Assembly (NCBI GenBank): GCA_041649495.1
Contig: JBAZMZ010000002.1
Location: 18,793 to 82,792, forward strand
Source of the DNA: Minisyncoccota bacterium
GTDB taxonomy: Bacteria > Patescibacteriota > Minisyncoccia > Phycocordibacterales > XYD1-FULL-46-19
Direction: 5' to 3'
Length of the DNA stretch: 64,000 nucleotides
The notes beneath the pieces were generated by a model. That model was not told the origin of the DNA. It made no database searches and saw nothing but the letters and a program-made list of their open reading frames with translations. This document shows, in pieces, positions 3,181 to 55,433 of this stretch. Position numbers and translations under genes: made by a program. Position 1 is the first letter of the stretch. The number at the start of each line of letters is the position of its first letter.

Positions 3181-3305
3181 ATTTTCTATTTCACGTTTCT
3201 CTTGGTTCATTGTCAGATGAGCCATTTTTTGATATTCTAAAAGAACAATTGAATATGGTGGCCTAAACCTACGCTTTTTAACTAAGGCTGGGCATGGCTC
3301 AAAGT

Positions 3306-3450
3306 CCCATCCCTGACACTGAACCCCGCGTTCAGCAACTCAGGGATGGGCCGTGCACCGAAAGGTGTATGGGGTCGTAAGACCTAGCTAGCGCGGGGCT
3401 TAGTGTTTCTCGCAAACCCTAACACTGCCCCAGTCAGTGTTTTTATTTTC
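3306..3450 (+). promoter_or_regulatory. structured 5' leader: pseudoknotted hairpin, GAAA-tetraloop hairpin and intrinsic terminator just before the start codon
   Basis: 11-bp stem cccatccctga (3306-3316) / tcagggatggg (3340-3350) with 23-nt loop. Loop segment ccccgcg (3324-3330) is complementary to cgcgggg (3392-3398). gcacc-GAAA-ggtgt hairpin at 3355-3368. Terminator aacactg-ccccagt-cagtgtt plus T-run at 3421-3450. An alternative pairing agtgtt (3402-3407) / aacact (3421-3426) could act as antiterminator. Confidence 0.45.
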
Positions 3451-7822: not shown

Positions 7823-9008
7823 TTTCTACCCCACGCCAGACACGATTCAATTCTTCACACGCAATCAAATCGCTTCCACTACCTGCAAACCCAGAGAAGA
7901 TAATATGTCCGGGTGCAGAACATCTTTTGAATGGTTTTTCATTTAAGGTGACTGGTTTTTGAGTGGGATGTAGATAGTTTTGGGTGTTGTCCCTTTTTAC
8001 TAACCAGAGGTCTATCATGTCTTGTAATTCGTCCAAGACTTGGTTGCCAGTGGTTACTTCTTGATTAAGAATTTCATTAGCATTTCTAAAGTTGGGGTTC
8101 AAATAGGGCTTATTTACTGTGCCGTATGAGCACGACTCGTACAATCTGTTCCAAGCAATTTTAGGTGTGCAATTCTGATTCGACTTAATCCAAAGACAAA
8201 CTCTTCTTTTTTTGATCCCATACTTGTCGTACATAGATTGTATTAATCCAATACTGTTAGGATCAGACCAGTAGAAGAAATGTGAATTCGGCTTTGCGAA
8301 TTTTTTAGATGTTTCTATGCTTTTATCAATAAATTCCTTGTACTCGTCTTCGCTCTTGTTATCTTTGTATTCTCCACCATACTTTCCTCCATATTCCCAG
8401 GAAATATTAAATGGCGGATCACAGAAAACAATGTCCGCTAGGTCATCTTTCATCAGTTCCTTTACCTGATTCTCATCAGTAGAATCTCCAACCAAAAGCC
8501 GATGCTTGCCAAGTTCATAAATTTCGCCAAGCTTTACCCTTGCAACAGGGGTTTCCTTCAGGGCTTTTCCTAAGTCAAAGTCATCCTCGATTGTATCAAC
8601 ATCATCGAACAAATTCTGAAGTTCTTCGTCACCGAAGCCGACATCAAGGAGAACGCTCATTTCGAATTCCTTGAGTAATTCTTCATTCCATGAACCCGTA
8701 TTTTTGTTGAGACGGAGGTTGAGTTCCTTTTCTTCTTCGAGTGTCAGCTCTCGGGAAGGCACCATACACTCAACATCCTCAATACCAAGTTCGGCGTACA
8801 CCTTGACCCGTTGTTCGCCCCCGATGATAGTGTTAGCTCGCGAACCGATGTTGAGGACGATGGGGACGACCGTCCCGAATTCTTTAACAGACTTTTCTAA
8901 GTCTCTTTTTTCGTTCTCGCTTAACTTACGCGGATTGTATCCGTTTTTGATCAGATCATTTAACTTGCGAGTAGAGGATGACCATGTGATCTTTTGTTGT
9001 CTAGACAT
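7737..9008 (-). CDS. ParB-like nuclease domain fused to DNA methyltransferase
   Basis: N-terminal ParB/Srx-like region (NPRKLSENEKRDLEKS..) plus DPPFNISWEY and FAGSGSDLIAC MTase motifs. Homologous to the 20741-22021 gene. Confidence 0.85.
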   Translation of the reverse strand: MSRQQKITWSSSTRKLNDLIKNGYNPRKLSENEKRDLEKSVKEFGTVVPIVLNIGSRANTIIGGEQRVKVYAELGIEDVECMVPSRELTLEEEKELNLRLNKNTGSWNEELLKEFEMSVLLDVGFGDEELQNLFDDVDTIEDDFDLGKALKETPVARVKLGEIYELGKHRLLVGDSTDENQVKELMKDDLADIVFCDPPFNISWEYGGKYGGEYKDNKSEDEYKEFIDKSIETSKKFAKPNSHFFYWSDPNSIGLIQSMYDKYGIKKRRVCLWIKSNQNCTPKIAWNRLYESCSYGTVNKPYLNPNFRNANEILNQEVTTGNQVLDELQDMIDLWLVKRDNTQNYLHPTQKPVTLNEKPFKRCSAPGHIIFSGFAGSGSDLIACEELNRVWRGVENDPIFATIVIDRWEKFTNLKAKKIYGDN

Positions 9009-9130
9009 AATAATTTGAGAAGAGGGTTTTATTAGACTCTTCTACCCTTATTCGTCATTGAATGACAAAATGACAATTTTCTTCTGACTCTCAGAAGCTG
9101 GAATCCAAAATATCCTTAATACAAAAGACC

Positions 9131-9172
9131 TTTCGCTGGAAACAGCGGAAGGTCTTTATTTCGTCATCTCAG
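9131..9172. terminator. bidirectional intrinsic terminator hairpin
   Basis: agacctttcgctg-gaaa-cagcggaaggtct stem-loop flanked by A/T runs, downstream of the minus-strand gene ending at 9182. Confidence 0.5.
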
Positions 9173-9181
9173 TTGAGATGA

Positions 9182-9907
9182 CTATTTGTCTCCTCTGAGC
9201 GTAAATCTCGCTCGATACCCATTCTTCTTGGTGTAGTGAGGGATCGGATTTTCTTTCATGCCAAAGAATTCCTTGAGCCGTTCGTTCAGATCGTACTTAA
9301 CGTTCCTGCTGAATCGCCTGTTCCACTTCTCGTTGGTCAACGCACCGCCGTTATCGGCCATTTCCCTGAGCAACTCCCACTTGCGGTCGGGACGGTTCGT
9401 CTTCGTGTTGATGAAGCCCATGTCTTTGAAGTCGAATTTCTTTGACTTCATTTTTGGGTACGATACTTTGACGAAATGTCCATCGATAAACTGGATGCCG
9501 AGTGATTCCCATGTCGCGTTTTGTGGAAGAAGGTACGAAGCAATTACGTATTCGCTTGTGTGCTTTGCCGAGGCGACGGCAATATCTTCAGGGTTTACAA
9601 TCCGTACCTCCTGAACCGGTCGTGTTAATGTAGGCATGAAATAGCTATCCTCCCCACCAAGAGTTTCAGGATATTTTGGCATTGTTATCTGTGATATTGA
9701 TGGGATAGACATTCTTGCCACAGCTTCCATTTGAGGTCTTACGGATTCAATAACTGAGCTTATGTTCTTGAGGGGTTCCCTCATATGTTCAAAAACTTTT
9801 TGGTACTCCTCCACCGCATTATTCAATGGCGAAATAAGCCCTTCTGCAAAAGTGGGGTTGTATCCGTTTTCTACTGCTTGCTTATATATCGATTCGCCAA
9901 CTGTCAT
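9182..9907 (-). CDS. hypothetical protein (241 aa)
   Basis: ORF with a terminator downstream; no recognisable motif. Confidence 0.5.
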   Translation of the reverse strand: MTVGESIYKQAVENGYNPTFAEGLISPLNNAVEEYQKVFEHMREPLKNISSVIESVRPQMEAVARMSIPSISQITMPKYPETLGGEDSYFMPTLTRPVQEVRIVNPEDIAVASAKHTSEYVIASYLLPQNATWESLGIQFIDGHFVKVSYPKMKSKKFDFKDMGFINTKTNRPDRKWELLREMADNGGALTNEKWNRRFSRNVKYDLNERLKEFFGMKENPIPHYTKKNGYRARFTLRGDK

Positions 9908-10498
9908 GTTTTCATTATATCAGAAATTGGCATTTGTTGGTATTTGAGACCATGACCCGAATGCCTAGTTTTGCCTAGTCAAAACGTGCTAGAATACCCT
10001 TATGTGGTCTAACCTTACTAGCACTTAACCCGAGTGTCCCGCCAATTAGAGCTAGCTCGAGATGCCTAGTTTGGGATAGTTTTTGTAATTGTTATTTTTG
10101 AAATTAGTGATAGTATGAGACCACTAGCTCTTAAGAGGTACCAGGACTTTGTTCCTGAAACGATCTTCTATCTTGCATTGGTCGTTCGATCTAGATGAGT
10201 TAGTCAAATTGTAGCTGGTTAATTGCAAGAGCTGTCCGTTAAGGACGCCCTTACAGTGGCCAAGTCGGTGTTTCGACCATAGGTTGAGCACCACCAAGAA
10301 TAGGAACTGAATCATAATTAATTTCATATTAGTATGGTTGATTGTGATTATCATTATTATTCTACCGACGTTGTTAGTTGACCCTAGCTTAGAAATAAGC
10401 AGGACGGCGAATGCAAGTTAGCTTTATAGTTATAATGACCTCTTCCTAGTATCGAACCATGTCAACGGTTTGCAGGAAGAGGTCTTTGCGTTTTTTGT

Positions 10499-11587
10499 AT
10501 GCTATATCAAGAATGGAAAAATCAAATCGGTCTCGAGAAAAAGGTTAGAAACTATCAACACATTGATGGCCGTCTTGATTTAAATAATGAGTTAAACTTT
10601 CTTAGGGTGGTTGACGTCCTTAAAAATATTAAGGGTCATCAGTTTTTACCTTTTATAAAAAAAGATAAAACGGAGATAAGATTTCGTAGAAGTAAAAACA
10701 ATCCAAAGGGAAGAGCCCAAAGAACCAAGAAAGTAAGGCCGATAATGTATGTCTCGCACATAGATGCCCACATTTACAGTTATTACAACTTTGCTCTCAT
10801 GGATAGATATGAACAATATTTAAACGAGATTGGATTGAGCGAAAATGTTATTGCTTATCGGAAAATAGAGATTGCTGGAACCCAAAAGGGTAAGAGTAAT
10901 ATTAATTTTGCCGGAGAGGTTTTTGATTACATAAAAACAAAAGATGAATGCGTGGTTATTACCCATGACATTGAACATTTCTTTGATGAAATAAATCATA
11001 AATTATTGAAAGATAATATCTGCAAAATACAGGGGATTGAAAAATTAGACGAGTCTTTTTACAAAGTATTTAGGTCCCTAACTGCTTACAAATATATTAC
11101 CCATGAAGATTTTTTGAATAAAAAGATCAAGAGAAAGTTGTCTCATGGTAAATATGCAATTTATCAAACTCTAAAAGGCATTGTAGAGGAAAATAGAACA
11201 AATATGGGAATTCCTCAGGGTAGTCCTATTAGTGGCCTACTTGCCAATATTTATTTAGTCAACTTTGATTCTGACATAAAAAAGCTTTTTCCTGATGTAT
11301 TTTATCGTCGATATAGTGACGATCTTGTTTTTGTCTGCAACAAGCTCCAAAAAGATGACCTACTAAAATTCGTAGATAAAAAAATCAAAGAATCCTTACT
11401 GAAGATTAATTCCAAAAAGTCCTTCGTATCTTATTTAAAGAGGGGCGAAAAAGGTATGGTTTGTGAAAAGGTAACAAATGGTTTAGGAGAAAAGCTTGGC
11501 CGAGATTATGTAGATTATCTAGGCTTTGAATTTAGTGGCAATAATATTTTTCTGAGAAAAAACACGATTCAAAAATTAAAGCATTGA
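10499..11587 (+). CDS. reverse transcriptase, stand-alone and unclassified (not the DGR RT); possibly truncated by an in-frame TGA
   Basis: RT motifs GIPQGSPISGLLANIYL and YRRYSDDLVFVC (YxDD), then ..YLGFEF. The ORF ends about 12 aa after motif 7 with no thumb domain and no maturase or endonuclease domains. Confidence 0.85.
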   Translation: MLYQEWKNQIGLEKKVRNYQHIDGRLDLNNELNFLRVVDVLKNIKGHQFLPFIKKDKTEIRFRRSKNNPKGRAQRTKKVRPIMYVSHIDAHIYSYYNFALMDRYEQYLNEIGLSENVIAYRKIEIAGTQKGKSNINFAGEVFDYIKTKDECVVITHDIEHFFDEINHKLLKDNICKIQGIEKLDESFYKVFRSLTAYKYITHEDFLNKKIKRKLSHGKYAIYQTLKGIVEENRTNMGIPQGSPISGLLANIYLVNFDSDIKKLFPDVFYRRYSDDLVFVCNKLQKDDLLKFVDKKIKESLLKINSKKSFVSYLKRGEKGMVCEKVTNGLGEKLGRDYVDYLGFEFSGNNIFLRKNTIQKLKH

Positions 11588-11590
11588 CAA

Positions 11591-11797
11591 ATGGAAAAGA
11601 CTAAAAAACAGTTGTCTAACACCCAACACCAGAAAAGAAGAAAGCTTAAAAAAATCAGAAGAAGGAATAAGGGTAAAACAAACTATTTTGAGAGAACACT
11701 TAAAATAATAAATAATCTCGGGATAAAGAAACAAATATTAAAAGTTACAAAGAAGAGGAATAGTATTAAAAGAGGGATTTTACCACCTCATCCTTAA
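11591..11797 (+). other. basic 68-aa ORF in the same frame as the RT, one codon past its TGA stop; possible displaced thumb/C-terminal tail
   Basis: Frame identity (10499 and 11591 are congruent mod 3). Very basic sequence (KRRKLKKIRRRNKGK..). The RT lacks a thumb-like segment. Confidence 0.35.
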
Positions 11798-13113
11798 ATG
11801 GCAGTTATAATTTTTTGTTTCAAGATAATTTTACTCTTTAGGCATGTCAGCAATTCTCTCTTTTCAATATTTGTCCCATCTCTCAAAATAAACTTGGCAT
11901 AATTTTTGATATCAATTTCGCCGACTTCAATTTTGTCTTTTAATCCAAGGATGACTCTTTGGAATTTCTTGAAACGCTCAACTTCGGTTTTGATTTTTTC
12001 CTTGATACTGATTTCGTTTAGATCTATTTTGTCGAGGAGCAGTTCGAATTGTTTAATCAAATCTTTTTCTTCAATATATCCGCATTTACAGTGGGCATCT
12101 TTGGCCTTAGTACAGCCATAATATACGTAACGATGAACATTGCCATTTTGCTGTTTCTTGAATTTCTCGTCAGCACAAATACCTGATCCGCATAAACCGC
12201 AAGTCATTAATTTGGTAAAAGCGAATTCCTGATTTTCGACTCTTAAAACATTGCTCTTAAGTTGAGCATGGGTTTGATCGAATAATTCTCGAGTGATAAT
12301 TGGCTCGTGTTTGCCTTGATACCAATTTCCACTATTTTTCGGATATTCAAAGGCCCCGTAATAAAAGGGGTTATAGAGAATACGAAAGATATTGCCTAGA
12401 CTTAAATGCTTTTTGCCTGCCGACGTTCTGAAATTTAATTCAAACCGTAACCACATATAAAGTTTCTTTCCACTCCATTTATCATAAGCCACTTTCTCAA
12501 ACACTTGTTTAATAACTGGTGCCCGTTCTGGATCAATAATTGCTTGGCACTTTCGATCCGATCTTTTTTCATTGAGATAGCCCGTCGGTGGAACTCCCGG
12601 TCTTAAACCCATTTCGCACCTAGTCCTTAGGCCACGTTTTACATTAACGCTCTTGTTGTCATTTTCGAGTTTGGCTTGAGAACATAAGATCATTAACAGG
12701 AATTTTTCATTTGGTGAATTTATAAATGTCTGGCCATAAGTTCTGATTTGCAGAAGCAATTTTTGATCCATTAAATCAACAACTGAACCAAGATCGCCAG
12801 CGTTTCTTGAAAGTCTGTCAGGTGCCCAAGTCAAAATTCCATTGAACCGACCCTGCCTAATATCCTCGAGTAATTCCTTAAAAATTGGCCGTTGTCCCGA
12901 GTCCTTAGCTGAATGAGCCTCACGTCTAATATCGACAATTTCTAAATTATCCCTTTCGGCCAATTGGAGCATCTCTTTGACTTGCGAATCGATCGACAAG
13001 ATTTGGCGCTCTTCTGATTCGGTCGACTTGCGTGCATATAGGACATACTTAATCGGCGTTGGTGGGGCAACGATTGATCTATCCATTATTTGACTATCCA
13101 GCTCTATTTTCAT
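11794..13113 (-). CDS. large serine recombinase
   Basis: N-terminal resolvase catalytic domain (YARKSTESEERQ..SIDSQ), recombinase domain, and Cys-rich zinc-ribbon region (CGLCGS..YYGC..CKC). Confidence 0.9.
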   Translation of the reverse strand: MKIELDSQIMDRSIVAPPTPIKYVLYARKSTESEERQILSIDSQVKEMLQLAERDNLEIVDIRREAHSAKDSGQRPIFKELLEDIRQGRFNGILTWAPDRLSRNAGDLGSVVDLMDQKLLLQIRTYGQTFINSPNEKFLLMILCSQAKLENDNKSVNVKRGLRTRCEMGLRPGVPPTGYLNEKRSDRKCQAIIDPERAPVIKQVFEKVAYDKWSGKKLYMWLRFELNFRTSAGKKHLSLGNIFRILYNPFYYGAFEYPKNSGNWYQGKHEPIITRELFDQTHAQLKSNVLRVENQEFAFTKLMTCGLCGSGICADEKFKKQQNGNVHRYVYYGCTKAKDAHCKCGYIEEKDLIKQFELLLDKIDLNEISIKEKIKTEVERFKKFQRVILGLKDKIEVGEIDIKNYAKFILRDGTNIEKRELLTCLKSKIILKQKIITAI

Positions 13114-13302
13114 CGTCGTCCATTAATGACAGACCAGAAAACCTTGTAAAGTCTATGCAGAATTGCCCGTTTATTACATAATCGTGGGCTAGCTTTACAA
13201 AAAATACTGTCTGCGATAGGGTTGGACGGATACAATTTTTGTTGTATTATTATCTTTGACAATACCTAAACCAAACTTTGCGTTTGGCATGGTAAATATA
13301 GG

Positions 13303-13468
13303 AAATCCCACGCGAGTAGAAACGGCCACATAAGCCGGCACTTACTCGCGTGGGTCCTCACCCGAAAGGGAGAGGGATAGTTCCGAAAGGAGCTATCGTC
13401 GGTCTTGTGTGGCCATTTGTGTCCCACAAAAATTATTAGCAATTATTATTAAATCCCACGCGAGGTAT
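13303..13468 (+). promoter_or_regulatory. structured 5' leader: pseudoknotted hairpin, two GAAA-tetraloop hairpins, and a triplicated segment allowing alternative pairing over the start region
   Basis: 12-bp stem cccacgcgagta (13307-13318) / tactcgcgtggg (13343-13354) with 24-nt loop. Loop segment ggccaca (13324-13330) is complementary to tgtggcc (13408-13414). GAAA hairpins at 13356-13375 and 13375-13396. aaatcccacgcgag occurs at 13303-13316 and again at 13451-13464, 4 nt before the ATG at 13469. Confidence 0.45.
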
Positions 13469-15062: not shown

Positions 15063-16115
15063 TTATTGTTCACAAAACCAAAATTCATTTCTAATCTTTT
15101 CACTTTGCTTATGAGTATTGGCATGGGATAAAACACCAAGATAAGAGTTAATTGTACCCTTGTAGCAATTGGGAGAGATCAACCCATTTTCATAATTTTT
15201 CTTGGACAGATCTATCTTTCGCCACATTCGCCGCTCGCTTCTTTTTCGCAAACGGCGGTGATAGGGTAAAAGCACGTAGCCAAGGAAATCGGTACCTTGG
15301 AATATTTTACCAATTCCCACCTTTTCCGGATGCAAAGACAGTCCCAGCTCCGTTTTTAAAAATTTAACCATTGGTTTAATTAAGCCGAGCAAATAATCAA
15401 TATTGTCTGATACAACAATAAAATCATCAGTGTATCGAACATAATTTTTAACCCTTAGCTCATGCTTCACGAATTGGTCAAACTCATTCATGTATACGTT
15501 GGCAAAGAGCTGGGAAGTGAGGTTGCCAATCGGGACACCGCGACGATTAAACAAATCTGAATATTCGCTCAAAAAACTTTCAATAATTTCTTCCAAAAGC
15601 CATATGGCGTTTTGGTCCGAGATCCTCCTTTTAATAATCGAAAGAAGAAACGAGTGATTAATGGTATCGAAGAATTTTTTAACGTCGCATTTTAAGGCAA
15701 AGCCGGGACGCGAATAATTATGGCTGACTTGCTGTTGCATTTGCTCCAAAACCGCCACGCCCTTGTGCGTGCCTTTGCCAAAACGGCAAGAAAAAGAACG
15801 CGGAATAAAAGTTGGTCCAAACACCCAATTCAACACTCGAAAAATAGCATGGTGTAAAACGCGATCACGGACCGTCGCCTTATGGATATGTCGCCGTTTG
15901 GGATCGTAAATATAGAAACTGCTATATGGACCATGCTTGTAAGTTCGGCTGGTTAAATCTCGGTGCAATTGAAAGATATTTTGTTCCAGATTCTTTTCGA
16001 AAGCCAATACGTCCGGCTTTTTCTGTTTGCCCCGCTTAAATTCTTCCCACGCCTGAAATAGGTTCTCCAAATTAACAATCTGATCAAATAAATTATTGTA
16101 AACCCTCATAACCAA
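15063..16115 (-). CDS. diversity-generating retroelement reverse transcriptase
   Basis: Close motif-by-motif resemblance to the Bordetella phage bRT: NLFQAWEEFKRGK, HGPYSSF, GKGTHKGV, IGNLTSQLFANVY, RYTDDFIVV, FLGYVL, SHANTH. Confidence 0.9.
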   Translation of the reverse strand: MVMRVYNNLFDQIVNLENLFQAWEEFKRGKQKKPDVLAFEKNLEQNIFQLHRDLTSRTYKHGPYSSFYIYDPKRRHIHKATVRDRVLHHAIFRVLNWVFGPTFIPRSFSCRFGKGTHKGVAVLEQMQQQVSHNYSRPGFALKCDVKKFFDTINHSFLLSIIKRRISDQNAIWLLEEIIESFLSEYSDLFNRRGVPIGNLTSQLFANVYMNEFDQFVKHELRVKNYVRYTDDFIVVSDNIDYLLGLIKPMVKFLKTELGLSLHPEKVGIGKIFQGTDFLGYVLLPYHRRLRKRSERRMWRKIDLSKKNYENGLISPNCYKGTINSYLGVLSHANTHKQSEKIRNEFWFCEQ

Positions 16116-16530: not shown

Positions 16531-16675
16531 CTTCGGGGAAACCATCGGAGGGAACACCGACGCCGAGCCATAGTTGTCGTTGGTATCGTCGACATCGTTC
16601 GTGTCGAACTTGACCTTGTCGCCGTTGAACTTGAAGTAGGGCGCCTTCGAGAAGTCGCCATCGCCATCCGGAGAT
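16531..16675 (-). repeat. DGR template repeat (TR)
   Basis: About 145 bp similar to 17098-17241. Most mismatches fall where this copy has A on the minus strand. The 16480-16773 ORF is its translation artefact. Confidence 0.75.
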
Positions 16676-17090: not shown

Positions 17091-17981
17091 TCACTGTTGC
17101 GGGGAAACCACCGGAGGGAACACCGACGCCGAGCCAGAGTCGTCGCTGGTATCGACGACAACGAGCGTGCCGAACCAGACCTCGTCGTCGTCGAACCCGA
17201 AGCACGGGGACTCCGAGAAGTCGCCACCGCCGCCCGGATTGAATTCGTCGCCCGCGCAGTCGATCCAGAGATCGTCCACGTTTTCGAGGCGTTCCGGATG
17301 GGTCAGGAGCATGATGCCGATTTCGAAAGCTCCCAGACCACACTCACCGCCAAACATGACGACACGTGCCCGACGGACGGACTTGTCACGGTGGCGCAGA
17401 CCGAATTGGGCCGCGATGACGAGCAGGTTGTGTCCGCTTTGCATTTTACTGAGTTCGAGGAAGAATTCCTCCTTCTTGGCGTGCTGGCGCAGGTGTGCTT
17501 CGTCGATCTGGCCGTCGCGGTAGTTGTAAAGCGAACCGCGAACTTCCTTGATCTTGTCGAGCACCACCTGGACCGCTTCGGGGTAGGTCTTGGCGATCAA
17601 CCGCCAGTCCGGAATCAAGAAGCGACCTTCAGCGTTCGGCGGAAGCGCTTCGCCTTCGATCGTGGTGTCGAACGTGGTCTGGGCGAGTTCGGGGAACAGT
17701 TCCTTCAAGCGCGAGGCCTGTTCGGCGAGCGGCTTCGGCTGGCTGTAGCCCGAGAGGTACCCATATTGCGACTCGACTTCTTCGTCGGCGAACTGGTCGG
17801 GGTTCGTGAGCTGTTCGATCAGCACTTTCAAACCCTTCTGGAATTCGCCACCGTTCTCGTTGAGTCTCTGTGCCCGTTCTTCGTCTAAACCCAACTTGTT
17901 GTAGGTTGCACGAAAGAGGTCTACCGCTTGACGTCCCTTGGGATCGTCGGCCGTGATCAATGCTGTCTGTGGCATCGTCAT
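17091..17981 (-). CDS. DGR target (variable) protein; VR at the 3' end (about 17098-17241)
   Basis: The C-terminal roughly 48 codons match the TR with adenine-specific differences. The GC-rich IMH-like end ggctcggcgtcggtgttccctccggtggtttcccc lies at the VR 3' end. Whole-gene GC is well above the genome background. Confidence 0.75.
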   Translation of the reverse strand: MTMPQTALITADDPKGRQAVDLFRATYNKLGLDEERAQRLNENGGEFQKGLKVLIEQLTNPDQFADEEVESQYGYLSGYSQPKPLAEQASRLKELFPELAQTTFDTTIEGEALPPNAEGRFLIPDWRLIAKTYPEAVQVVLDKIKEVRGSLYNYRDGQIDEAHLRQHAKKEEFFLELSKMQSGHNLLVIAAQFGLRHRDKSVRRARVVMFGGECGLGAFEIGIMLLTHPERLENVDDLWIDCAGDEFNPGGGGDFSESPCFGFDDDEVWFGTLVVVDTSDDSGSASVFPPVVSPQQ

Positions 17982-18884: not shown

Positions 18885-20345
18885 TCAAAAGAAAAAAATC
18901 CTTTGGCCACCCGGTCGTTCTTCCATAACACTTAGCACCATGATTGAAAAGGCATCGGCTAGATCGTCGTGCTTTTCCACTCCGAAATTAATAATTTGAT
19001 TAAGGAGTTCTTCACAATTATCCCTTGGAAAGAGGATTTTGCCAGACTTTATCCAGTGAGCTGTCATAACGAGACGACTTCGTTTGTCGCCACAAGGACG
19101 AGATGTCATGATGTTGTAGATGTTTTCGGCTTCAAGTTGTTGTGGCAACGCTCGTTGGTAAGCGACGTCTTCGAAGACAAACTCCGGGATCGTATCATCA
19201 GCGTAATATGACTTGTAAATTGATTTACAAAGTTCGACCGTCTCTGGGAAGGTAATTTTTTTATTAACAATTTTGGGCAAGATATAAATTCGTAGTCCAT
19301 TATCATCTTCGTATGCACAGCCGATCACCATTGCCGTATAATCAGCTGAGTCTTTTTGTGAGATTGCTAAATCCACCCCAATTCGGATACCAAGATAACA
19401 GGAGTATCCGTAGCGTTTTTTCTTCTTTGAGGGTAGTTCGTCGTAATAGTGAATCCAGTCTCGGTGGATGGCCTGCTCTTCAGATGGGACGATGCGAAGC
19501 AGGTATTCTCGTTGCCAGGCATACTCGTTGGCCGATCGCCTTTTCTCTGTCTCAATATCCTCCATTGTCGGATATTTCCCCGGCCAAAGAATTTGGCCGT
19601 TTTGGACTAATGGATATTGTTTAAATACGCCATCTAGTTTTCCGGTCTCAATATTTTCTTTAATCCGCATTAAGAGTGAATCTTCGTGCAGAAGATTACC
19701 AACGATGACAATTCTGGTATCTCGATCACCAGCCGGGACCACCTCAGCTGTTAGCCACTGATATGTTTTATTGCGACTTTCGCGAGTTTTAGTTGAAGAG
19801 AGATCCTCTACGTCGTCACCGATTATTAGATCAGGACGATGTTGGTTGTGTCTTAAACCTCTGATACTTTGCTCGCTTGAGGCAACGGTAATACGAGCAT
19901 TTGAATTGGAGAAAACCAGTGACGAAGTTCCCCATTCATTGGATTCTTCGTTGAATGGTCCGAGGTCGTTTTTCAACACCGTGTTTTCTTCTAACTCTCG
20001 GCGAAGATTCATCATGTGCTGTTTAGCCTGAGCTTGAGTTTGACAGAGAATGAGAACAAATTTTTTCTGTTGTCTACCGAGAATAGCCCAGAGCGGATAG
20101 GAAGTGGTGATAATAGTTGATTTACCACAACCACGAAAAGCAACGACAAAGAAGTTCTTCACCGATTCGTCTTCTGTTAAGCCGATAATTTCTCGCTGGA
20201 AAGTGGCCGTCTGGTATTTAATGTAATGGGCGAAATAAAAATGAAAGAAATACCAGTGACTTTCCTTGGTAATGGAAATTCTAACTTTCTGGTCGCGGAT
20301 CATCGTTTCCGCTAGATCCACTGGGATCACATTTTTCGTTGTCAT
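18885..20345 (-). CDS. phage terminase large subunit
   Basis: Walker A FRGCGKST near the N-terminus, ATPase then RNaseH-like nuclease half with acidic residues (DDLADAF). Size about 486 aa. Confidence 0.85.
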   Translation of the reverse strand: MTTKNVIPVDLAETMIRDQKVRISITKESHWYFFHFYFAHYIKYQTATFQREIIGLTEDESVKNFFVVAFRGCGKSTIITTSYPLWAILGRQQKKFVLILCQTQAQAKQHMMNLRRELEENTVLKNDLGPFNEESNEWGTSSLVFSNSNARITVASSEQSIRGLRHNQHRPDLIIGDDVEDLSSTKTRESRNKTYQWLTAEVVPAGDRDTRIVIVGNLLHEDSLLMRIKENIETGKLDGVFKQYPLVQNGQILWPGKYPTMEDIETEKRRSANEYAWQREYLLRIVPSEEQAIHRDWIHYYDELPSKKKKRYGYSCYLGIRIGVDLAISQKDSADYTAMVIGCAYEDDNGLRIYILPKIVNKKITFPETVELCKSIYKSYYADDTIPEFVFEDVAYQRALPQQLEAENIYNIMTSRPCGDKRSRLVMTAHWIKSGKILFPRDNCEELLNQIINFGVEKHDDLADAFSIMVLSVMEERPGGQRIFFF

Positions 20346-20754
20346 GTTGGTTGTCGTTATCGCTATTAATTTCTGTTGGCTCAGGTATTTGAGCTAGTTT
20401 TAGGGCCTCACGAACAATAGCTTCCTGTTCGGGGGTTAATTCACCGTTGTTTTGGATTTTGGCTGTTACCTCCATCTTATCTTTGAATCTGGTATTACGA
20501 TGTCGTAACCAAAAACTAATTGCGGGGAAATTTCTTTCTTTAATCAGACTCAACAACTGGCTTTCACTCATATCATTAACTAACGCCTCACCCTCGGCTA
20601 AGGCCTCGTTCATTTCTTTCTTAAATTCCTTATCTTTATCGCACCAGCGATACACACTGGTGCGAGAGACATTCATCTTTTCACATGCGACTTGCACAAT
20701 GGGTACTTTTTTCAATTCCTCCAAAAAGGAATTTCTTACTTTAGCTTTTTTCAT
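20281..20754 (-). CDS. HTH protein, probable terminase small subunit
   Basis: N-terminal HTH (VACEKMNVSRTSVYRWC). Overlaps the start of the terminase large subunit gene, an arrangement typical of small/large terminase pairs. Confidence 0.5.
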   Translation of the reverse strand: MKKAKVRNSFLEELKKVPIVQVACEKMNVSRTSVYRWCDKDKEFKKEMNEALAEGEALVNDMSESQLLSLIKERNFPAISFWLRHRNTRFKDKMEVTAKIQNNGELTPEQEAIVREALKLAQIPEPTEINSDNDNQHDNEKCDPSGSSGNDDPRPES

Positions 20755-22021
20755 GGTTAATCTTTGCCTTACGGCCGGTTAATTTCTCATAATGTCGAAT
20801 TGCCAAATCACAAAAAACGGGTTCAAGCTCGACAGCGAAGACTCTTCGCTTGAGTTGCTCGCCTGCAATTAAAGTGCTGGACGACCCGGAGAAGCTATCT
20901 AAAATAATGTCGCCGGGCTTGGTGCAACGGCGAATCGCTTTTTCGTGCAATTTTGGTGGCTTGGAAGTGGCATGTTCATAATCTTTGCCGGATAGTCGTT
21001 TAACCGCCCAGACATCAATATTGTCTAAAGCTTCCTCGACCAGAGCGTTGCCTGTACCGATTTCTTTATTGAGTACCTCATTCAGATTTTTAATCTCCGG
21101 AGCGATATATGGTTTACCCCTAACGCCATAAGTACATGGCTCATAGCATTTATTGAAAGCTACACCCGGAGTCGGGTTCTGACCGTTCTTGAGCCAGAGA
21201 CAAATTCGTTTATTTTCAATTCCTAATTCGCGGTATAAATCTTGAACCAGCCCGACGTATATCTGGTCCGACCAATAGAAAACGTGGGTGTCAGGCTTGG
21301 CAACCATTAGGGCGTTAACCAGACTTTGGCGCAGAAAGTCTCGATATTCGACAAAAGTTCGTTTGTCGTTTACATTACCGCCATAATTTTTCTTGCCACC
21401 GATACCTTGGGAATAATCTAGGTTGATGTTGTAGGGAGGATCTGAGTAGATCATCGAAGCTCTATTGTTGCCAAATAGTCGCCTTAGGATGGCCGGGTCG
21501 CCAGAACTACCACAGATTAAGCGGTGTGGCCCAAGCTCGATTAGGTCGCCTAGCTTTGTCTTAGGTTCTTTAATTTTTTCTAATTCTTTTTCTTCGTCAA
21601 AATCATCATCCTTGGTTTCTAGGTTTTGATCCCAGATTTTGGCTAATTCGTCTTGATTAAATCCGATATCAGTGAGAAGATCTAGGTTAAATGATTTCAA
21701 TTTCTCAAAATCCCAGTCGCCAGTGACGGCATTGGAAGTGATGAGGTATTGATCATATTCCTGTTGTGTTAATTTACGGTTAGGAATTCTGACCTCGATT
21801 AATTCTTCACCTCGACCCAGCACCTGCAGAGCACGAATCCGTTGGTGCCCAGCAACGATTTTGCCATCAATATCCACGGCCGGTAGTTCAACAAGGTTGA
21901 ACTTTCTCAGACTCTTCTTCAAATCGCTCATTTGCTTGTCTGAAATCAAGCGCGGATTTTTAGCATAAGGCAGGAGGTCGTTGACCTTGCGTTTTTGAGT
22001 AGACCAAATTAATTTTTTCAT
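20741..22021 (-). CDS. ParB-like nuclease domain fused to DNA methyltransferase (second copy)
   Basis: Same architecture and motif set as the 7737-9008 gene (ParB-like N-terminus, DPPYNINLDY, FSGSSSTLIAGE). Confidence 0.85.
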   Translation of the reverse strand: MKKLIWSTQKRKVNDLLPYAKNPRLISDKQMSDLKKSLRKFNLVELPAVDIDGKIVAGHQRIRALQVLGRGEELIEVRIPNRKLTQQEYDQYLITSNAVTGDWDFEKLKSFNLDLLTDIGFNQDELAKIWDQNLETKDDDFDEEKELEKIKEPKTKLGDLIELGPHRLICGSSGDPAILRRLFGNNRASMIYSDPPYNINLDYSQGIGGKKNYGGNVNDKRTFVEYRDFLRQSLVNALMVAKPDTHVFYWSDQIYVGLVQDLYRELGIENKRICLWLKNGQNPTPGVAFNKCYEPCTYGVRGKPYIAPEIKNLNEVLNKEIGTGNALVEEALDNIDVWAVKRLSGKDYEHATSKPPKLHEKAIRRCTKPGDIILDSFSGSSSTLIAGEQLKRRVFAVELEPVFCDLAIRHYEKLTGRKAKINHEKS

Positions 22022-22106
22022 GTTTTTTATTTATTAAATTAATAATACTGTAGCATTCTTGAGCTACAGTATTATTGAAACAGGTCGAAAAAATATATCT
22101 GTAATT

Positions 22107-48483: not shown

Positions 48484-49064
48484 ACAATTCTCTCTACCCC
48501 TTCTTTAAACAAATTTTGTTGAATACGCTTTCGGCTTGGGGGATTAATTTATCAGCCATCGATGAGCGGTTAACCCACTGGCTGGCGATTTATTGGTATG
48601 TAGCCATTTTCCTGTCAGCCATCTTTTTTGCCGGGATAATTTATTTTATTAATAAGATTATCGAAATTCGTCGTTGGGAAAGTGAGCGAGTTTATGGTCA
48701 GTCCGGCCTGATCACTGAGCTTAAAGAAAATTTGGCGGTTGTCCCGCCAGTGAAGAATCAAGATTGGAAAAAAATTATGAAGTTAATTGGCTCGGATAAT
48801 CCTAACGATTGGCAAAAAGCAATTATTGATGCCGATAAAATGTTAGAAATTGTGGTCGACACTTTTTCCGTCCCCGGTGACAATATTGGCGACAAATTAA
48901 AAAACATTGAACGAAGCGATTTTAACACGTTGGATGAGGCTTGGCAGGCGCATAAAATTCGTAATCGGATTGCGCACGAACATAATTTCCATTTGAGTCA
49001 ACGTGACGCGCGTTTGACCATTGATAATTTCGAAAAAGTCTTTCGCGAATTTGACTTTATTTAA
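48471..49064 (+). CDS. hypothetical membrane protein
   Basis: ORF with an N-terminal TM segment; no motif. Confidence 0.45.
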   Translation: MSNVDNSLYPFFKQILLNTLSAWGINLSAIDERLTHWLAIYWYVAIFLSAIFFAGIIYFINKIIEIRRWESERVYGQSGLITELKENLAVVPPVKNQDWKKIMKLIGSDNPNDWQKAIIDADKMLEIVVDTFSVPGDNIGDKLKNIERSDFNTLDEAWQAHKIRNRIAHEHNFHLSQRDARLTIDNFEKVFREFDFI

Positions 49065-50655
49065 GGTAATAGTATAATAAGAGCGCGGGGTAGAGTAACG
49101 GTAATTCGCAAGGCTCATAACCTTGAGACGCCGGTTCGAATCCGGCCTCCGCAACATGTCCAGACGGCATCGTCTGAAAATCCTCATTTAGCTTGAAGAT
49201 ACAAGACAAAATCGCGGTTCCAAATGTCCCAGTGGTTTTTTGATAGGTGATGCCTTGACTTAGAACCATTTTTTGGAACCTCACCTTTTGCGCGGATTCC
49301 ATTAACCACCACTGATTAGCAGTGTCAGCAATTAGCTGGTTCGTTCCAGTGATGGCCTCCTCGAGATCAAGTTCTTCAATTTCGGCCTCGTTTCTTGAGA
49401 CCCGAAGACTAGCCATTTGATTATCAAGTGAGTCTTTTAACTCTCGATATTCATCTTTGGAGATTTCTTGTTCAACTCTCATCCCCAGTAGCTCCCGCTT
49501 CTTTTTTTCAAGTTTTGAGATCTCCTGTTGATAAAAATCTTTCTCTTGTTGAGCTGTCGAATGTCTTGTTTGATAGACCTCAATAACCGTTTGTTTAAAT
49601 AGGGCCAAGAATTCCTCGGACGGGGTGACTTTTTGGAGAAAATTATAGAATTCACCCTCCAGAACATCTCTAGCGATACCCCGATTACAATGAACGCAGG
49701 CTGGATTGTAGCAATTATAGTAGGCGTATTTTTTACCCCGGCCCGTGTTCCAAGAGCCCGTTAGCCCACGATGGCATTCGCAAGAGACAAAACGTCGGAG
49801 AGGGAAGTCGGGGTTATCAGAGGCTCTTGGCCGGGTGGCCCCACTTGATTTTTGGGTTTTGACCATTTGAATTTTTTGGTATTCATCAATCGTGATCATC
49901 GGTTGGTGTTGCCCTCGGTGTTCTTCTTTTGTCCAAGGATTGACTAAAATTCCGGCGTAGAATTTATTGACCAAAATAATCTCCCAAAGTTGCTTTCGCA
50001 TCAGTTTCCCCGTTCTTGTTCTTAATCCCCAGCTATTACTTTCTTCAGCCAATCGAGTGATTGTGTGGTTTCCCTTGAGATAAAGTCTTAAGCCTTTCTG
50101 GATTAGATAAAAACGCTTGTCGTCGGGAATGTCTGGTAGATTTTTCCGACGATCGGTTCGCAACTTTGAATTTGTGTAGCCAATCGGAGGCGACCAACAC
50201 CAGATACCCTCTCTCAATTTCGCTTTCATTCCGCCGGTGCAACGTTGTTTTCTGACTTCATTCTCGAACTCGGCATAGCCCGCCAAAAAGGTTTCCATTA
50301 ATTTGCCGATATGATCTTGCGTAATTGGCTCAGTTACCGATTGGAGTGTGATGCCGTATTGGGTTAATTTAGCACGCACCGCAAAGTGGTCGGTAGTGTT
50401 GCGGGCGAAGCGGTCAATTTTCCAAACAATAAAATAATCAAGATCTTCTTTGTTTAAGCGGCAGAATTCAAGCGCTTTTAAAAATTCAGTCCGATTGGTG
50501 GCGGTGGCCGACTCTCCTCGTTCTACAAAAACCTTAACCACTTCAATATTATTTTTGGTGGCATAATCAAGACAGGCCCGTTCTTGAGAATCAAGGCTAG
50601 TCCCTTGAACCTGCTCGTTTGATGATACTCGACAATAGATGATTCCTTTTTTCAT
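49057..50655 (-). CDS. large serine recombinase (second copy), tRNA-adjacent
   Basis: N-terminal IYCRVSSNEQ...SLDSQ resolvase domain, recombinase domain, Cys-rich zinc ribbon. The 3' end of the ORF runs antisense across the tRNA-Met gene (tail ..AGFEPAS..). Confidence 0.85.
   Translation of the reverse strand: MKKGIIYCRVSSNEQVQGTSLDSQERACLDYATKNNIEVVKVFVERGESATATNRTEFLKALEFCRLNKEDLDYFIVWKIDRFARNTTDHFAVRAKLTQYGITLQSVTEPITQDHIGKLMETFLAGYAEFENEVRKQRCTGGMKAKLREGIWCWSPPIGYTNSKLRTDRRKNLPDIPDDKRFYLIQKGLRLYLKGNHTITRLAEESNSWGLRTRTGKLMRKQLWEIILVNKFYAGILVNPWTKEEHRGQHQPMITIDEYQKIQMVKTQKSSGATRPRASDNPDFPLRRFVSCECHRGLTGSWNTGRGKKYAYYNCYNPACVHCNRGIARDVLEGEFYNFLQKVTPSEEFLALFKQTVIEVYQTRHSTAQQEKDFYQQEISKLEKKKRELLGMRVEQEISKDEYRELKDSLDNQMASLRVSRNEAEIEELDLEEAITGTNQLIADTANQWWLMESAQKVRFQKMVLSQGITYQKTTGTFGTAILSCIFKLNEDFQTMPSGHVAEAGFEPASQGYEPCELPLLYPALLLYYYLK
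49084..49154 (+). tRNA. tRNA-Met (CAT anticodon), initiator-like
   Basis: Hand-folded cloverleaf: acceptor cgcgggg/ctccgca with C1:A72 mismatch, D-stem gagt/attc with A11:U24, anticodon arm caagg-ctCATaa-ccttg, T-arm gccgg-ttcgaat-ccggc, discriminator A. CCA not encoded. Confidence 0.85.
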
Positions 50656-50665
50656 AATATTTTTT

Positions 50666-50986
50666 TTAGAAACAGAAAAGGGGCAACAGATGGCACTCCA
50701 AGTTACGACACAAGAAGTTCTGTTGCCCCTTTTCTGGGTTCAAAATGAGCGCCGTGTTTAACCTCTTGTGTCGTAACCTAATATTAACATAATTGAAAGG
50801 ATCAATAAAGAAGCAGGAGGCTGATTTGTTTGGGCCCTCGCCATTTTTATGTTTTTGTTCGACGATATCTAACGCCAACTCGGCAAGATCATTAAGGGCA
50901 TCACGGACCTTGAGGATCTCCTCGTCGCTTAATCTTTTAAGGGTCTCGGGGCTTAAATATTTTTTACATTGTTCCAAGCTAAGCAT
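50666..50986 (-). CDS. small hypothetical protein (N-terminal about 55 aa probably real; C-terminal half doubtful)
   Basis: The N-terminal ..DEEILKVRDALNDLAELALDIV.. resembles the neighbouring small acidic ORF. Confidence 0.35.
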   Translation of the reverse strand: MLSLEQCKKYLSPETLKRLSDEEILKVRDALNDLAELALDIVEQKHKNGEGPNKSASCFFIDPFNYVNIRLRHKRLNTALILNPEKGQQNFLCRNLECHLLPLFCF

Positions 50987-55188: not shown

Positions 55189-55333
55189 ATTTATAAGATA
55201 ATAATATAACTTTTAGGACCAAGATTAAAGGGTTAGACAGCTTTATTTTTAATTGGTTTGGTGCTACTCTATACTTAACAACTAAATAAGGAGACCTAAC
55301 CCAATAATCTCGATTGTTGGCATGGTCAAAAAG

Positions 55334-55433
55334 CCACTGCTGGCTACTAAACCCGTCGTTTAGGAGCGCCAGCAGTGGTTACCACCCGAAAGGATGGTAG
55401 GTGGCCTCGGCCATCGCCTAGCGACGGGTTTAG
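55334..55433 (+). promoter_or_regulatory. structured 5' leader: pseudoknotted hairpin plus GAAA-tetraloop hairpin (third copy of the architecture)
   Basis: 11-bp stem ccactgctggc (55334-55344) / gccagcagtgg (55368-55378) with 23-nt loop. Loop segment ctaaacccgtcg (55347-55358) is complementary to cgacgggtttag (55422-55433). ttaccaccc-GAAA-ggatggtag hairpin at 55380-55403. Confidence 0.45.

Follow-up and report, generated by a model that had tools for sequence, protein, structure and literature searches.

Organization of the locus

The window analyzed here, a stretch of 64,000 nt from contig JBAZMZ010000002.1 (positions 18,793 to 82,792 of the forward strand) of the Minisyncoccota bacterium assembly GCA_041649495.1, contains a stand-alone reverse transcriptase (RT) gene starting with an ATG at 10499 and preceded by a long gap. 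The gap extends over 9908-10498, from an open reading frame (ORF) of 241 aa on the minus strand (9182-9907) to the RT, and its existence, pointed out in an earlier note made from the letters of this stretch, is borne out by the ORF coordinates. As judged from alignment with related loci, the gap begins with a locus-specific spacer of about 180 nt; a promoter comes next, and then a conserved RNA of about 370 nt (about 10123-10493). The RNA element is limited to about 10089-10493, and homologous loci align from the extended -10 box of this promoter to the ATG of the RT. The features described below make it very probable that 10089-10493 comprises the promoter and the non-coding RNA (ncRNA) of a DRT2 (UG2) defence system, with the RT encoded from 10499, and that the system includes the neo-template mechanism. 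This mechanism was published for the Klebsiella pneumoniae system KpnDRT2 (Tang et al. 2024, bioRxiv 10.1101/2024.05.08.593200; Wilkinson et al. 2024, PMC12039810); its logic is that of rolling-circle copying of an RNA, with a promoter and an endless ORF (neo, encoding the protein Neo) existing only in the repeat DNA.

A divergent DRT2 reverse transcriptase

The RT gene is laid out as follows.

10499-11797, plus strand: predicted DRT2 reverse transcriptase gene, with an in-frame TGA at 11585-11587 beyond which the frame continues to a TAA at 11795-11797

The RT was matched by the PADLOC Drt2 models with E-values of 1.5e-100 and 1.3e-74, the best other RT type giving 5e-25 and retron models about 1e-13. 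It could be aligned end to end with the K. pneumoniae DRT2 structure (PDB 9c0i; residues 16-418, E = 1e-42), and a Pfam search returned RVT_1 only, with no extra domains. Drt2 was also the top NCBIfam model, but at 311 bits, under the curated cut-off of 390, and on these scores the RT is therefore placed in DRT2/UG2 as a divergent member. Its nearest relatives were found in Nomurabacteria and Paceibacteria genome bins, and a scan of metagenome contigs with the RT alignment gave, among the matches listed, distant relatives only (≤36% identity).

For comparison, 12 loci with RTs 52-69% identical to that of the window were fetched from Patescibacteria genome bins and metagenome contigs, giving 13 aligned loci with the window; two further loci, L171 and L172 (RT 54% and 47% identical, respectively), were added later, bringing the total to 15. 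Across the 14 other loci, mostly from Patescibacteria and with RT identities of 47-69%, the upstream RNA was conserved. Scans of IMG/VR with the RT protein and with the conserved ncRNA pattern gave no match, so there is no evidence from these scans of a phage-borne element; blastn of 9700-11800 against phage GenBank entries likewise gave no match. The window itself is part of a cellular genome, with genes for an asparagine synthase, a NAD-dependent DNA ligase, an amidase-family protein, a PilB-type ATPase and a Pif1 helicase.

The uninterrupted RT ORF (10499-11587) encodes 362 aa, homologs having 425-450 aa. Past the TGA, which is codon 363 of about 432, the frame remains open for 69 more codons that align with the C-termini of homologs; Y396 and Q412 are among the invariant residues retained there. 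L161, another assembly of this element (99.65% identical), carries the TGA as well. Recoding of this TGA as a sense codon was considered and rejected as unlikely, because TGA is the normal stop of 10 other long ORFs in the window and because homologs have K at this position (rarely S, A or G) and not W or, a single case apart, G. In E. coli termination, UGA followed by C is the leakiest stop context, and the TGA, which is followed by C, would be either a recent nonsense mutation or such a leaky stop. The premature stop bears on whether this DRT2 copy still works, and the copy may be inactive. A recent relic with the same DRT2 architecture, in which the RNA is still made or encoded and the truncated RT yields neither concatemeric cDNA nor Neo, is accordingly a possibility to be kept in mind, although not the favoured one. 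It would agree with the recurrence of the TGA in both assemblies, with the arguments against recoding and with the existence of other truncated homologs (e.g. P0093). It agrees less well with the preserved C-terminal codons, with the intactness of all RNA features (helices, open frame, unit length in multiples of 3 and split promoter) and with the UGA-C context, through which some full-length RT may still be made.

Downstream, a large serine recombinase gene on the minus strand (11794-13113) overlaps the tail of the RT gene by 4 nt. Its product is 57-65% identical to recombinases encoded beside the DRT2 ncRNA in L164, L165, L167 and L170, in which the recombinase gene is divergent and upstream; in the window it is convergent. 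Since these recombinases stand beside the ncRNA and have diverged about as much as the RTs, the RT, ncRNA and recombinase appear to travel together. ParB-methylase genes also recur near these DRT2 loci.

A conserved structured RNA upstream of the RT

The promoter and the parts of the RNA, all on the plus strand, are as follows.

10089-10116: putative ncRNA promoter, with a -35-like TTGTTA at 10089-10094, a 16-nt spacer and an extended -10 box TGaTAGTAT at 10108-10116; predicted start near 10123
10123-10493: predicted DRT2-associated ncRNA of about 370 nt, its ends inferred and uncertain by a few nt; found in 12 other loci by alignment and in 2 by covariance model R1
10123-10204: 5' domain, closed by P1 and containing Ha and Hb
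10123-10129 (ACUAGCU) with 10198-10204 (AGUUAGU): helix P1
10142-10146 with 10153-10157: Ha, a variable hairpin (cagga/tcctg)
10160-10165 with 10180-10185: Hb
10172-10179 (CUUGCAUU, Hb loop) with 10410-10417 (AAUGCAAG, 3' scaffold): pseudoknot, inverted repeat I1
10383-10432: 3' scaffold, comprising H4, the 3' strand of the pseudoknot (10410-10417) and H5
10383-10391 with 10396-10403: H4
10419-10422 with 10429-10432: H5
10437-10484: long, tower-like terminal hairpin, with a lower stem 10437-10447/10474-10484 (the 11-bp repeat), an upper stem 10454-10458/10467-10471 and the loop AUGUCAAC
10485-10493: 3' tail UUUGCGU(UU), proposed RNA 3' end and primer

Conservation started exactly at the TGnTAnnAT block of the extended -10 box, which was kept in all 13 aligned loci (columns 100-109 of alignment A3), and in the 12 other loci it ran from there to the ATG of the RT. 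In a generic promoter scan the ncRNA promoter fell below the threshold. The RNA (10121-10495) was predicted to fold at -121.4 kcal/mol, as compared with -90.2 +/- 5.5 kcal/mol for shuffled sequences (z = -5.7). A consensus structure, obtained with RNAalifold and completed with two helices taken from inverted repeats, comprised 57 pairs in 9 helices with 94.2% of cells paired. Compensatory changes were present in 29 of the 57 pairs, against 7-10 in slid controls, and the observed values were reached in none of 500 shuffles. By the earlier note, the lack of a conserved upstream segment in homologous RT loci would have spoken against its proposal; the fold and covariation comparison that it had suggested instead revealed a conserved structured RNA in these loci. 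A permissive search of 9000-12500 against Rfam revealed no family for this ncRNA, with chance-level matches only (E > 5), and a search of the whole window at gathering thresholds gave none in the region.

Within the 5' domain, compensatory changes affected 5 of the 7 pairs of P1 (98.9% of cells paired), and covariation was seen in 5 of the 6 pairs of Hb. The CAGGA/TCCTG stem listed in the earlier note corresponds to Ha, which is absent in L168 and L169 and has another sequence elsewhere. The pseudoknot between the Hb loop and the 3' scaffold (8 pairs, 94% paired) occurs as three compensatory variants, CUUGCAUU/AAUGCAAG in the window, CUUGUAUU/AAUACAAG in most loci and CUUAUAUU/AAUAUAAG in L003. 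In the 3' scaffold, 5 of the 8 pairs of H4 showed compensatory changes (GCUU/AAGC, GCCU/AGGC, GCCC/GGGC), and H5 was 96% paired. The perfect 11-bp inverted repeat GACCTCTTCCT/AGGAAGAGGTC, which the earlier note had placed one base off and 13 nt before the RT start, forms the lower stem of the terminal hairpin and ends 14 nt before the ATG. This hairpin was 99-100% paired with compensatory changes in 5 pairs and a nearly invariant loop. The tail TCTTTGCG was invariant in 12 of the 13 loci, and RNAalifold indicated that its UUUGCGU (10485-10491) can pair with ACGU at 10368-10371. A pairing of the 5' AAGAGGU with the 5' arm of the tower (repeats I20 and D9) was also considered and discarded, no supporting covariation being apparent by eye.

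The terminal hairpin followed by UUUGCGUUUUUU, 14 nt before the ATG, could also suit a structured 5' leader or attenuator of the RT mRNA only, with the hairpin and U-run acting as a leaky terminator and no templating involved; the purine-rich GGAAGAGG in the 3' arm of the stem might then be the ribosome-binding site of the RT. The invariance of the tail sequence, however, exceeds that of a simple U-run, a terminator scan gave no call at this site, and a leader has no need for the mod-3 unit, antisense open frame, split promoter and flanking repeats described below. Such a role is compatible with templating and not exclusive of it; as the only function of the RNA it appears highly improbable. 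The presence of a structured RNA upstream of an RT also recalls retron msr/msd elements. The earlier note had judged the geometry not to be retron-like, an assessment with which the present analysis agrees: P1 encloses the 5' domain only, no long inverted repeats bracket the whole RNA, and the RT scored about 1e-13 with retron models as against 1e-100 with Drt2, leaving the probability of a retron-like element practically negligible.

A predicted template unit and its hidden antisense frame

Between the 5' domain and the 3' scaffold lies the predicted template, with the following features.

10211-10369, plus strand: predicted template unit of 159 nt (53 codons), with the neo frame on the minus strand; its edges (+/- a few nt) are placed by homology to the flanking repeat of other loci
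10124-10354, minus strand: antisense ORF in the genome, 76 codons long (97 between stops, 10124-10417), sharing the frame of the neo unit and lacking a linear promoter
10223-10228, minus strand: putative -35 half of a split promoter, TTGCAA, 12 nt before the neo-sense 3' end of the unit
10359-10364, minus strand: putative -10 half belonging to the same promoter, TAGAAT here and TATAAT in most homologs, lying 5 nt after the neo-sense 5' end of the unit
10313-10315, minus strand: candidate in-frame start codon ATG (unit codon 19), inside an invariant GAAUCAU motif
10368-10381, plus strand: template 3' edge and second copy of the flanking repeat, GUUGUUAGUUGA, 8/12 identical to copy 1, GUAGCUGGUUAA, at 10211-10222

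The gap is therefore not ORF-free, as had been claimed, and the antisense open frame at 10124-10354 is the key feature, and the predicted payload, of the region. In all 15 loci the length of the unit was a multiple of 3 (138, 141, 144, 147, 150, 159 or 162 nt); no such pattern was found for the 5' domain or the 3' scaffold. When the unit was concatenated and reverse-complemented, frame 0 was stop-free in 13/13 loci (in L162 frame 2 as well) and none of the sense frames was open, and the antisense frame was open across A3 columns 211-406 in the same 13 loci. An open frame was obtained with shuffled units in only 5-30% of trials.

The two halves of the putative promoter, which is of sigma-70 type, are out of order in the genome and would be united across the junction of two units. 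The junction spacing from -35 to -10 was 17 nt in 13/13 loci, with 8-11 of 12 promoter matches; in the window the joined sequence reads TTGCAA, then TTAACCAGCTAC, the junction and GTCGG, then TAGAAT. TTGCAx or TTGACx occupied the -35 position in all 13 loci, with CAAG invariant. In the linear genome, the best -35 ahead of the same -10 matched ≤2 of 6 positions. The start codon was ATG in 12 of the 13 loci and GTG in L163. The flanking repeat was found at homologous positions in all loci, with varying length and with sequences differing between loci: it was 9/9 identical in L001 (GTTATAAGC twice) and L162 (GTAATGAGC twice), and 7/7 in L003 (GTTATCA twice); L002 and L166 have 5-6 nt, and the remaining loci 1-3 nt. 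The predicted Neo unit has 53 residues, of which 51% are hydrophobic. A Pfam scan of the Neo product gave no significant family, and its AlphaFold model showed two helices per repeat at low confidence (pLDDT, the predicted local distance difference test, of 53), too low for a fold search.

Two other accounts of the open frame were considered. In the first, the minus-strand ORF at 10124-10354 is an ordinary gene for a small protein, and the conservation of the plus strand merely reflects it. The frame is indeed open in all loci, with indels in multiples of 3 and a third codon position that is slightly the most variable. Against this stand the lack of a linear -35, the variable ends of the ORF (stops at A3 columns 119 to 211, upstream limits at 406 to 542), the 29 covarying plus-strand pairs, some of them far outside the ORF, the co-variation of the flanking direct repeats between loci, the invariance of the -35 motif at the nucleotide level and the lack of a Pfam match, and there is little reason to believe in an ordinary gene here. 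In the second, repeat DNA copied from the RNA functions as such (as a decoy, sponge or scaffold) and is not translated. Other DRTs are reported to make functional non-coding DNA, namely the tandem repeats of DRT10 and the homopolymers of DRT9, and the weak coding signature and the absence of an evident Shine-Dalgarno sequence before the conserved ATG would be in line with this. A DNA product would not, however, require a mod-3 length in 15/15 loci (7 lengths), a stop-free frame, a start codon or a junction promoter, and this account is considered very unlikely.

Extension to further DRT2 loci

A covariance model of the 3' part of the ncRNA (the 3' scaffold), named R1, was used for searches in further loci. 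With default filters, R1 found the training loci only among 169 DRT2 loci, with no clear match in the more distant loci L005-L160; with filters off, a weak match (22.3 bits, E = 0.0012) appeared directly upstream of the RT in L004 (RT 40% identical). In the two later loci, L171 and L172, R1 matched directly upstream of the RT with E-values of 3e-19 and 2e-21, respectively. The end of the unit was fixed here by the R1 match, and a solution had to combine four properties: a flanking repeat beginning with GU, TTG at a distance of 17 nt, a mod-3 length and an open frame. In both loci a unit of 138 nt, with an open frame and a TTG at 17 nt across the junction, was the sole solution having all four properties; in L172 a 93-nt candidate had the last three but no flanking repeat.

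A generic scan was set to look for a split TTGnnn/TAnnnT at 17 nt over the junction, a mod-3 unit, an open reverse-complement frame and a flanking repeat no shorter than 3 nt. As a positive control, two gammaproteobacterial loci (L044 and L062) were scanned, and the published arrangement was returned (ACA...aca, a 120-nt unit and TTGACA/TATAAT). Among 159 DRT2 loci (L001-L160), the generic scan gave a solution upstream of the RT in 66, with unit lengths of about 96 to 201 nt; the opposite strand gave 16 and shuffled sequences 13. This suggests that the neo logic may be widespread beyond the K. pneumoniae clade.

Proposed mechanism

The proposal of the earlier note that the gap encodes a template or guide ncRNA of DRT type for the stand-alone RT is upheld by the DRT2 assignment of the RT, the conserved covarying RNA and the hallmarks of a neo template. 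The neo-template reading draws on the RT family, the conservation and predicted fold of the RNA, the mod-3 unit, the open concatemer frame, the split promoter, the start codon and the flanking repeat of varying length, all of which are read from the aligned loci. Priming, template jumping, triggering by phage and the toxicity of Neo are carried over by analogy with the K. pneumoniae system.

Several observations weigh against this reading. In addition to the Drt2 score under the NCBIfam cut-off and the in-frame TGA seen in two assemblies, the pairing of the tail with the template edge is supported by one compensatory change, in L170. Inspection of the sequence revealed no evident Shine-Dalgarno sequence before the conserved ATG. 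The flanking repeat of the window is weak, with GU at the homologous position and 8/12 identity over the stretch, and alternative repeats, TTGT (162-nt unit) and GTTAGT (174-nt unit), are present, so that the exact junction is not fixed. Finally, the coding signature is weak, with codon-position entropies of 0.98/0.86/1.06 and with 30% of single-nucleotide differences synonymous, against 23-27% in other frames.

In the neo-template mechanism as proposed for this locus, the RNA would be transcribed from its own extended -10 promoter, and the RT would be produced from read-through transcripts. The RNA would fold into the 5' domain (P1, Ha and Hb), a loosely structured template of 159 nt and the 3' scaffold with its two hairpins and the long terminal hairpin, the pseudoknot linking the Hb loop to the 3' scaffold. 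The RT would bind this RNA, and pairing of the tail UUUGCGU with ACGU at the 3' edge of the template would prime cDNA synthesis, a role of the RNA 3' tail inferred from K. pneumoniae DRT2 (PMC12039810). At the 5' edge of the template, the nascent cDNA would re-anneal to the other copy of this edge, immediately 3' of the template, and the template would therefore be copied repeatedly, by rolling-circle reverse transcription. After second-strand synthesis, each junction would unite the -35 TTGCAA and the -10 TAGAAT at 17 bp, and transcription of the repeat DNA would run antisense to the ncRNA. Starting at the conserved ATG, translation would then give a stop-less, hydrophobic Neo of 53-residue repeats that arrests the infected cell. 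A bolder version, in which the Patescibacteria-associated DRT2 is a mechanistically distinct sub-type, self-primed by pairing of the tail at the template edge, with a jump through a long homology (up to 9-12 nt) instead of ACA and a different fold, and with UGA-C in this copy as a leaky stop that holds the full-length RT and the synthesis of the toxic gene very low, is speculative and rather unlikely.

The left part of the gap and neighboring features

The part of the gap upstream of the conserved element contains the following features.

9908-10088, no strand assigned: locus-specific spacer outside the conserved element, without a homolog in DRT2 loci
9912-9920, minus strand (read as the reverse complement): probable extended -10 box TGATATAAT of the divergent gene 9182-9907, read from the sequence
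9961-9979 and 10062-10080: direct repeat of 19 nt at 84% identity, extended from ATGCCTAGTTT
9986-9992 and 10018-10024: 7-bp inverted repeat

A search with 9908-10115 gave no match among the 169 DRT2 loci, and the left part folded with z = -2.6 on the plus strand and -1.6 on the minus strand. The repeats that the earlier note had listed here are present in the sequence. The direct repeat ATGCCTAGTTT occurs at 9961 and 10062, and its 19-nt extension is mildly unlikely by chance. The arms GTGCTAG/CTAGCAC enclose 25 nt and not 27 nt as had been stated, and the 7-bp hairpin that they form is at chance level, 641 nt of sequence containing 22 inverted pairs that are 7 nt or longer. The significance attached to the listed repeats can thus be kept in part: the CAGGA hairpin and the 11-bp stem belong to the conserved RNA and are supported by the comparison of loci, but the 7-bp hairpin and the ATGCCTAGTTT repeats lie outside the element. 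The idea that the left part is a partial duplicate of the 5' end of the ncRNA (8-12-nt repeats D2, D5 and D6) was discarded in view of inconsistent offsets and near-chance numbers.

The 241-aa protein of the divergent gene had no match in Pfam, PHROGs, NCBIfam or PADLOC. As its ATG lies 6 nt after the TGATATAAT box, the mRNA of this gene may be leaderless. Between a methylase gene and the 241-aa gene, R1 gave a weak intergenic match (27.7 bits) at 9063-9163 on the plus strand. This segment contains a GACCTTTCGCTG-GAAA-CAGCGGAAGGTC hairpin with T-runs on both strands, and is either a bidirectional terminator resembling the terminal hairpin of the ncRNA or a decayed remnant of the scaffold.

Other features were noted elsewhere in the window. 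A second RT gene (15063-16115, minus strand; phrog_1423, E = 7e-116) adjoins a pair of 139-nt repeats at 16534-16672 and 17100-17238 with 24 mismatches, 19 of which are T in copy 1 on the plus strand, i.e. A-specific on the strand of this RT. This is the sequence signature of a diversity-generating retroelement (DGR), with 16534-16672 as the predicted template repeat and 17100-17238 as the variable repeat. Downstream of the DGR, a terminase-like ORF (Terminase_6C, E = 3.5e-05, above gathering score) and another N6/N4 DNA methylase gene, at 18885-20393 and 20741-22030 on the minus strand, suggest remnants of a prophage or mobile element. A second serine recombinase gene (49057-50739, minus strand) overlaps at its 3' end a tRNA-Met gene (49084-49155, plus strand), an arrangement typical of an element integrated at a tRNA site. 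Matches to LOOT RNA (RF03000) above the gathering threshold were found at 3260-3385, 13263-13397 and 55293-55415 on the plus strand; a literature search on LOOT RNA gave nothing useful.

Comparison with known systems

The rules published for DRT2 comprise a stop-free reverse-complement concatemer, a mod-3 length, -35 and -10 joined at 17 bp, edge repeats and an in-frame start (bioRxiv 10.1101/2024.05.08.593200; PMC12039810). The present locus resembles KpnDRT2 in its single-domain RT of about 430 aa and in an ncRNA that contains a pseudoknot, has its own promoter and immediately precedes the RT on the same strand. It also shares a central template of mod-3 length with a stop-free frame in the reverse-complement concatemer, -35 and -10 halves out of genomic order but united at 17 bp over the repeat junction, and an in-frame start codon that follows the -10. 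The likeness is completed by a hydrophobic repeat protein with helices predicted at low confidence and by a long terminal hairpin with a conserved 3' tail beside the 3' edge of the template. There are also differences. The ncRNA has about 370 nt here, compared with 280-281 nt, and the unit has 138-162 nt in this clade (159 nt in the window), compared with 111-129 nt in close K. pneumoniae homologs. The ACA-1/ACA-2 motifs are absent from the unit edges, which instead carry a degenerate, GU-starting repeat of 9-12 nt. The junction is 5 nt ahead of the -10 and 12 nt past the -35, whereas in KpnDRT2 it falls at about 11 and 6 nt, a shift of 6 nt; across the KpnDRT2-like subclade the -10 is about 11-12 nt away from it. 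The start codon lies about 43 nt after the -10, without a clear ribosome-binding site, as against 13 nt; the pseudoknot here connects the loop of a 5' hairpin with the 3' scaffold; and the hosts are Patescibacteria. By these signatures the locus is predicted to work like KpnDRT2 and to belong to the DRT2 family, but to lie outside the KpnDRT2-like subclade, because of its lack of ACA motifs, shifted junction, longer unit and RNA, and separate RNA sequence family.

With the neo mechanism of DRT2 known since 2024, what the present comparison adds is a predicted variant from a divergent lineage with its own RNA family and junction. Writing a gene by reverse transcription would then not be confined to the enterobacterial clade of its discovery, and the neo logic would extend to a lineage, found mostly in ultra-small Patescibacteria, whose RNA family and junction geometry are different. 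Concrete coordinates are proposed for template, junction, promoter halves and start codon in a clade outside the KpnDRT2-like one, where prediction of Neo was reported to be harder. The combination of a mod-3 unit, an open frame and a split promoter provides a simple sequence test able to annotate such loci. It also gives a warning for annotation, in that a non-coding gap may conceal a protein encoded on the other strand, a payload that any ORF caller would misinterpret.

Among other RT systems, retron msr/msd elements share an RT adjoining a structured template RNA, but their RTs belong to another clade, the bracketing a1/a2 are lacking here, and a concatemeric gene is predicted in place of a single msDNA. 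DRT10 is reported (PMC12632851) to comprise an RT and ncRNA with repeated copying of an internal template, a telomerase-like synthesis of tandem repeats, and to be protein-primed and come with a SLATT effector, in contrast to the DRT2 RT and the unit with promoter and open frame found here. Also comparable are the divergent DRT2 clades whose ncRNAs were obtained with iterated covariance models and in which annotation of Neo was found to be more challenging and alternative mechanisms were considered possible (Tang et al. 2024, bioRxiv 10.1101/2024.05.08.593200). Like these, the present loci have RTs outside the KpnDRT2-like clade and an upstream ncRNA; here, in contrast, all 15 loci follow the neo rules for unit length, open frame and promoter spacing across the junction.

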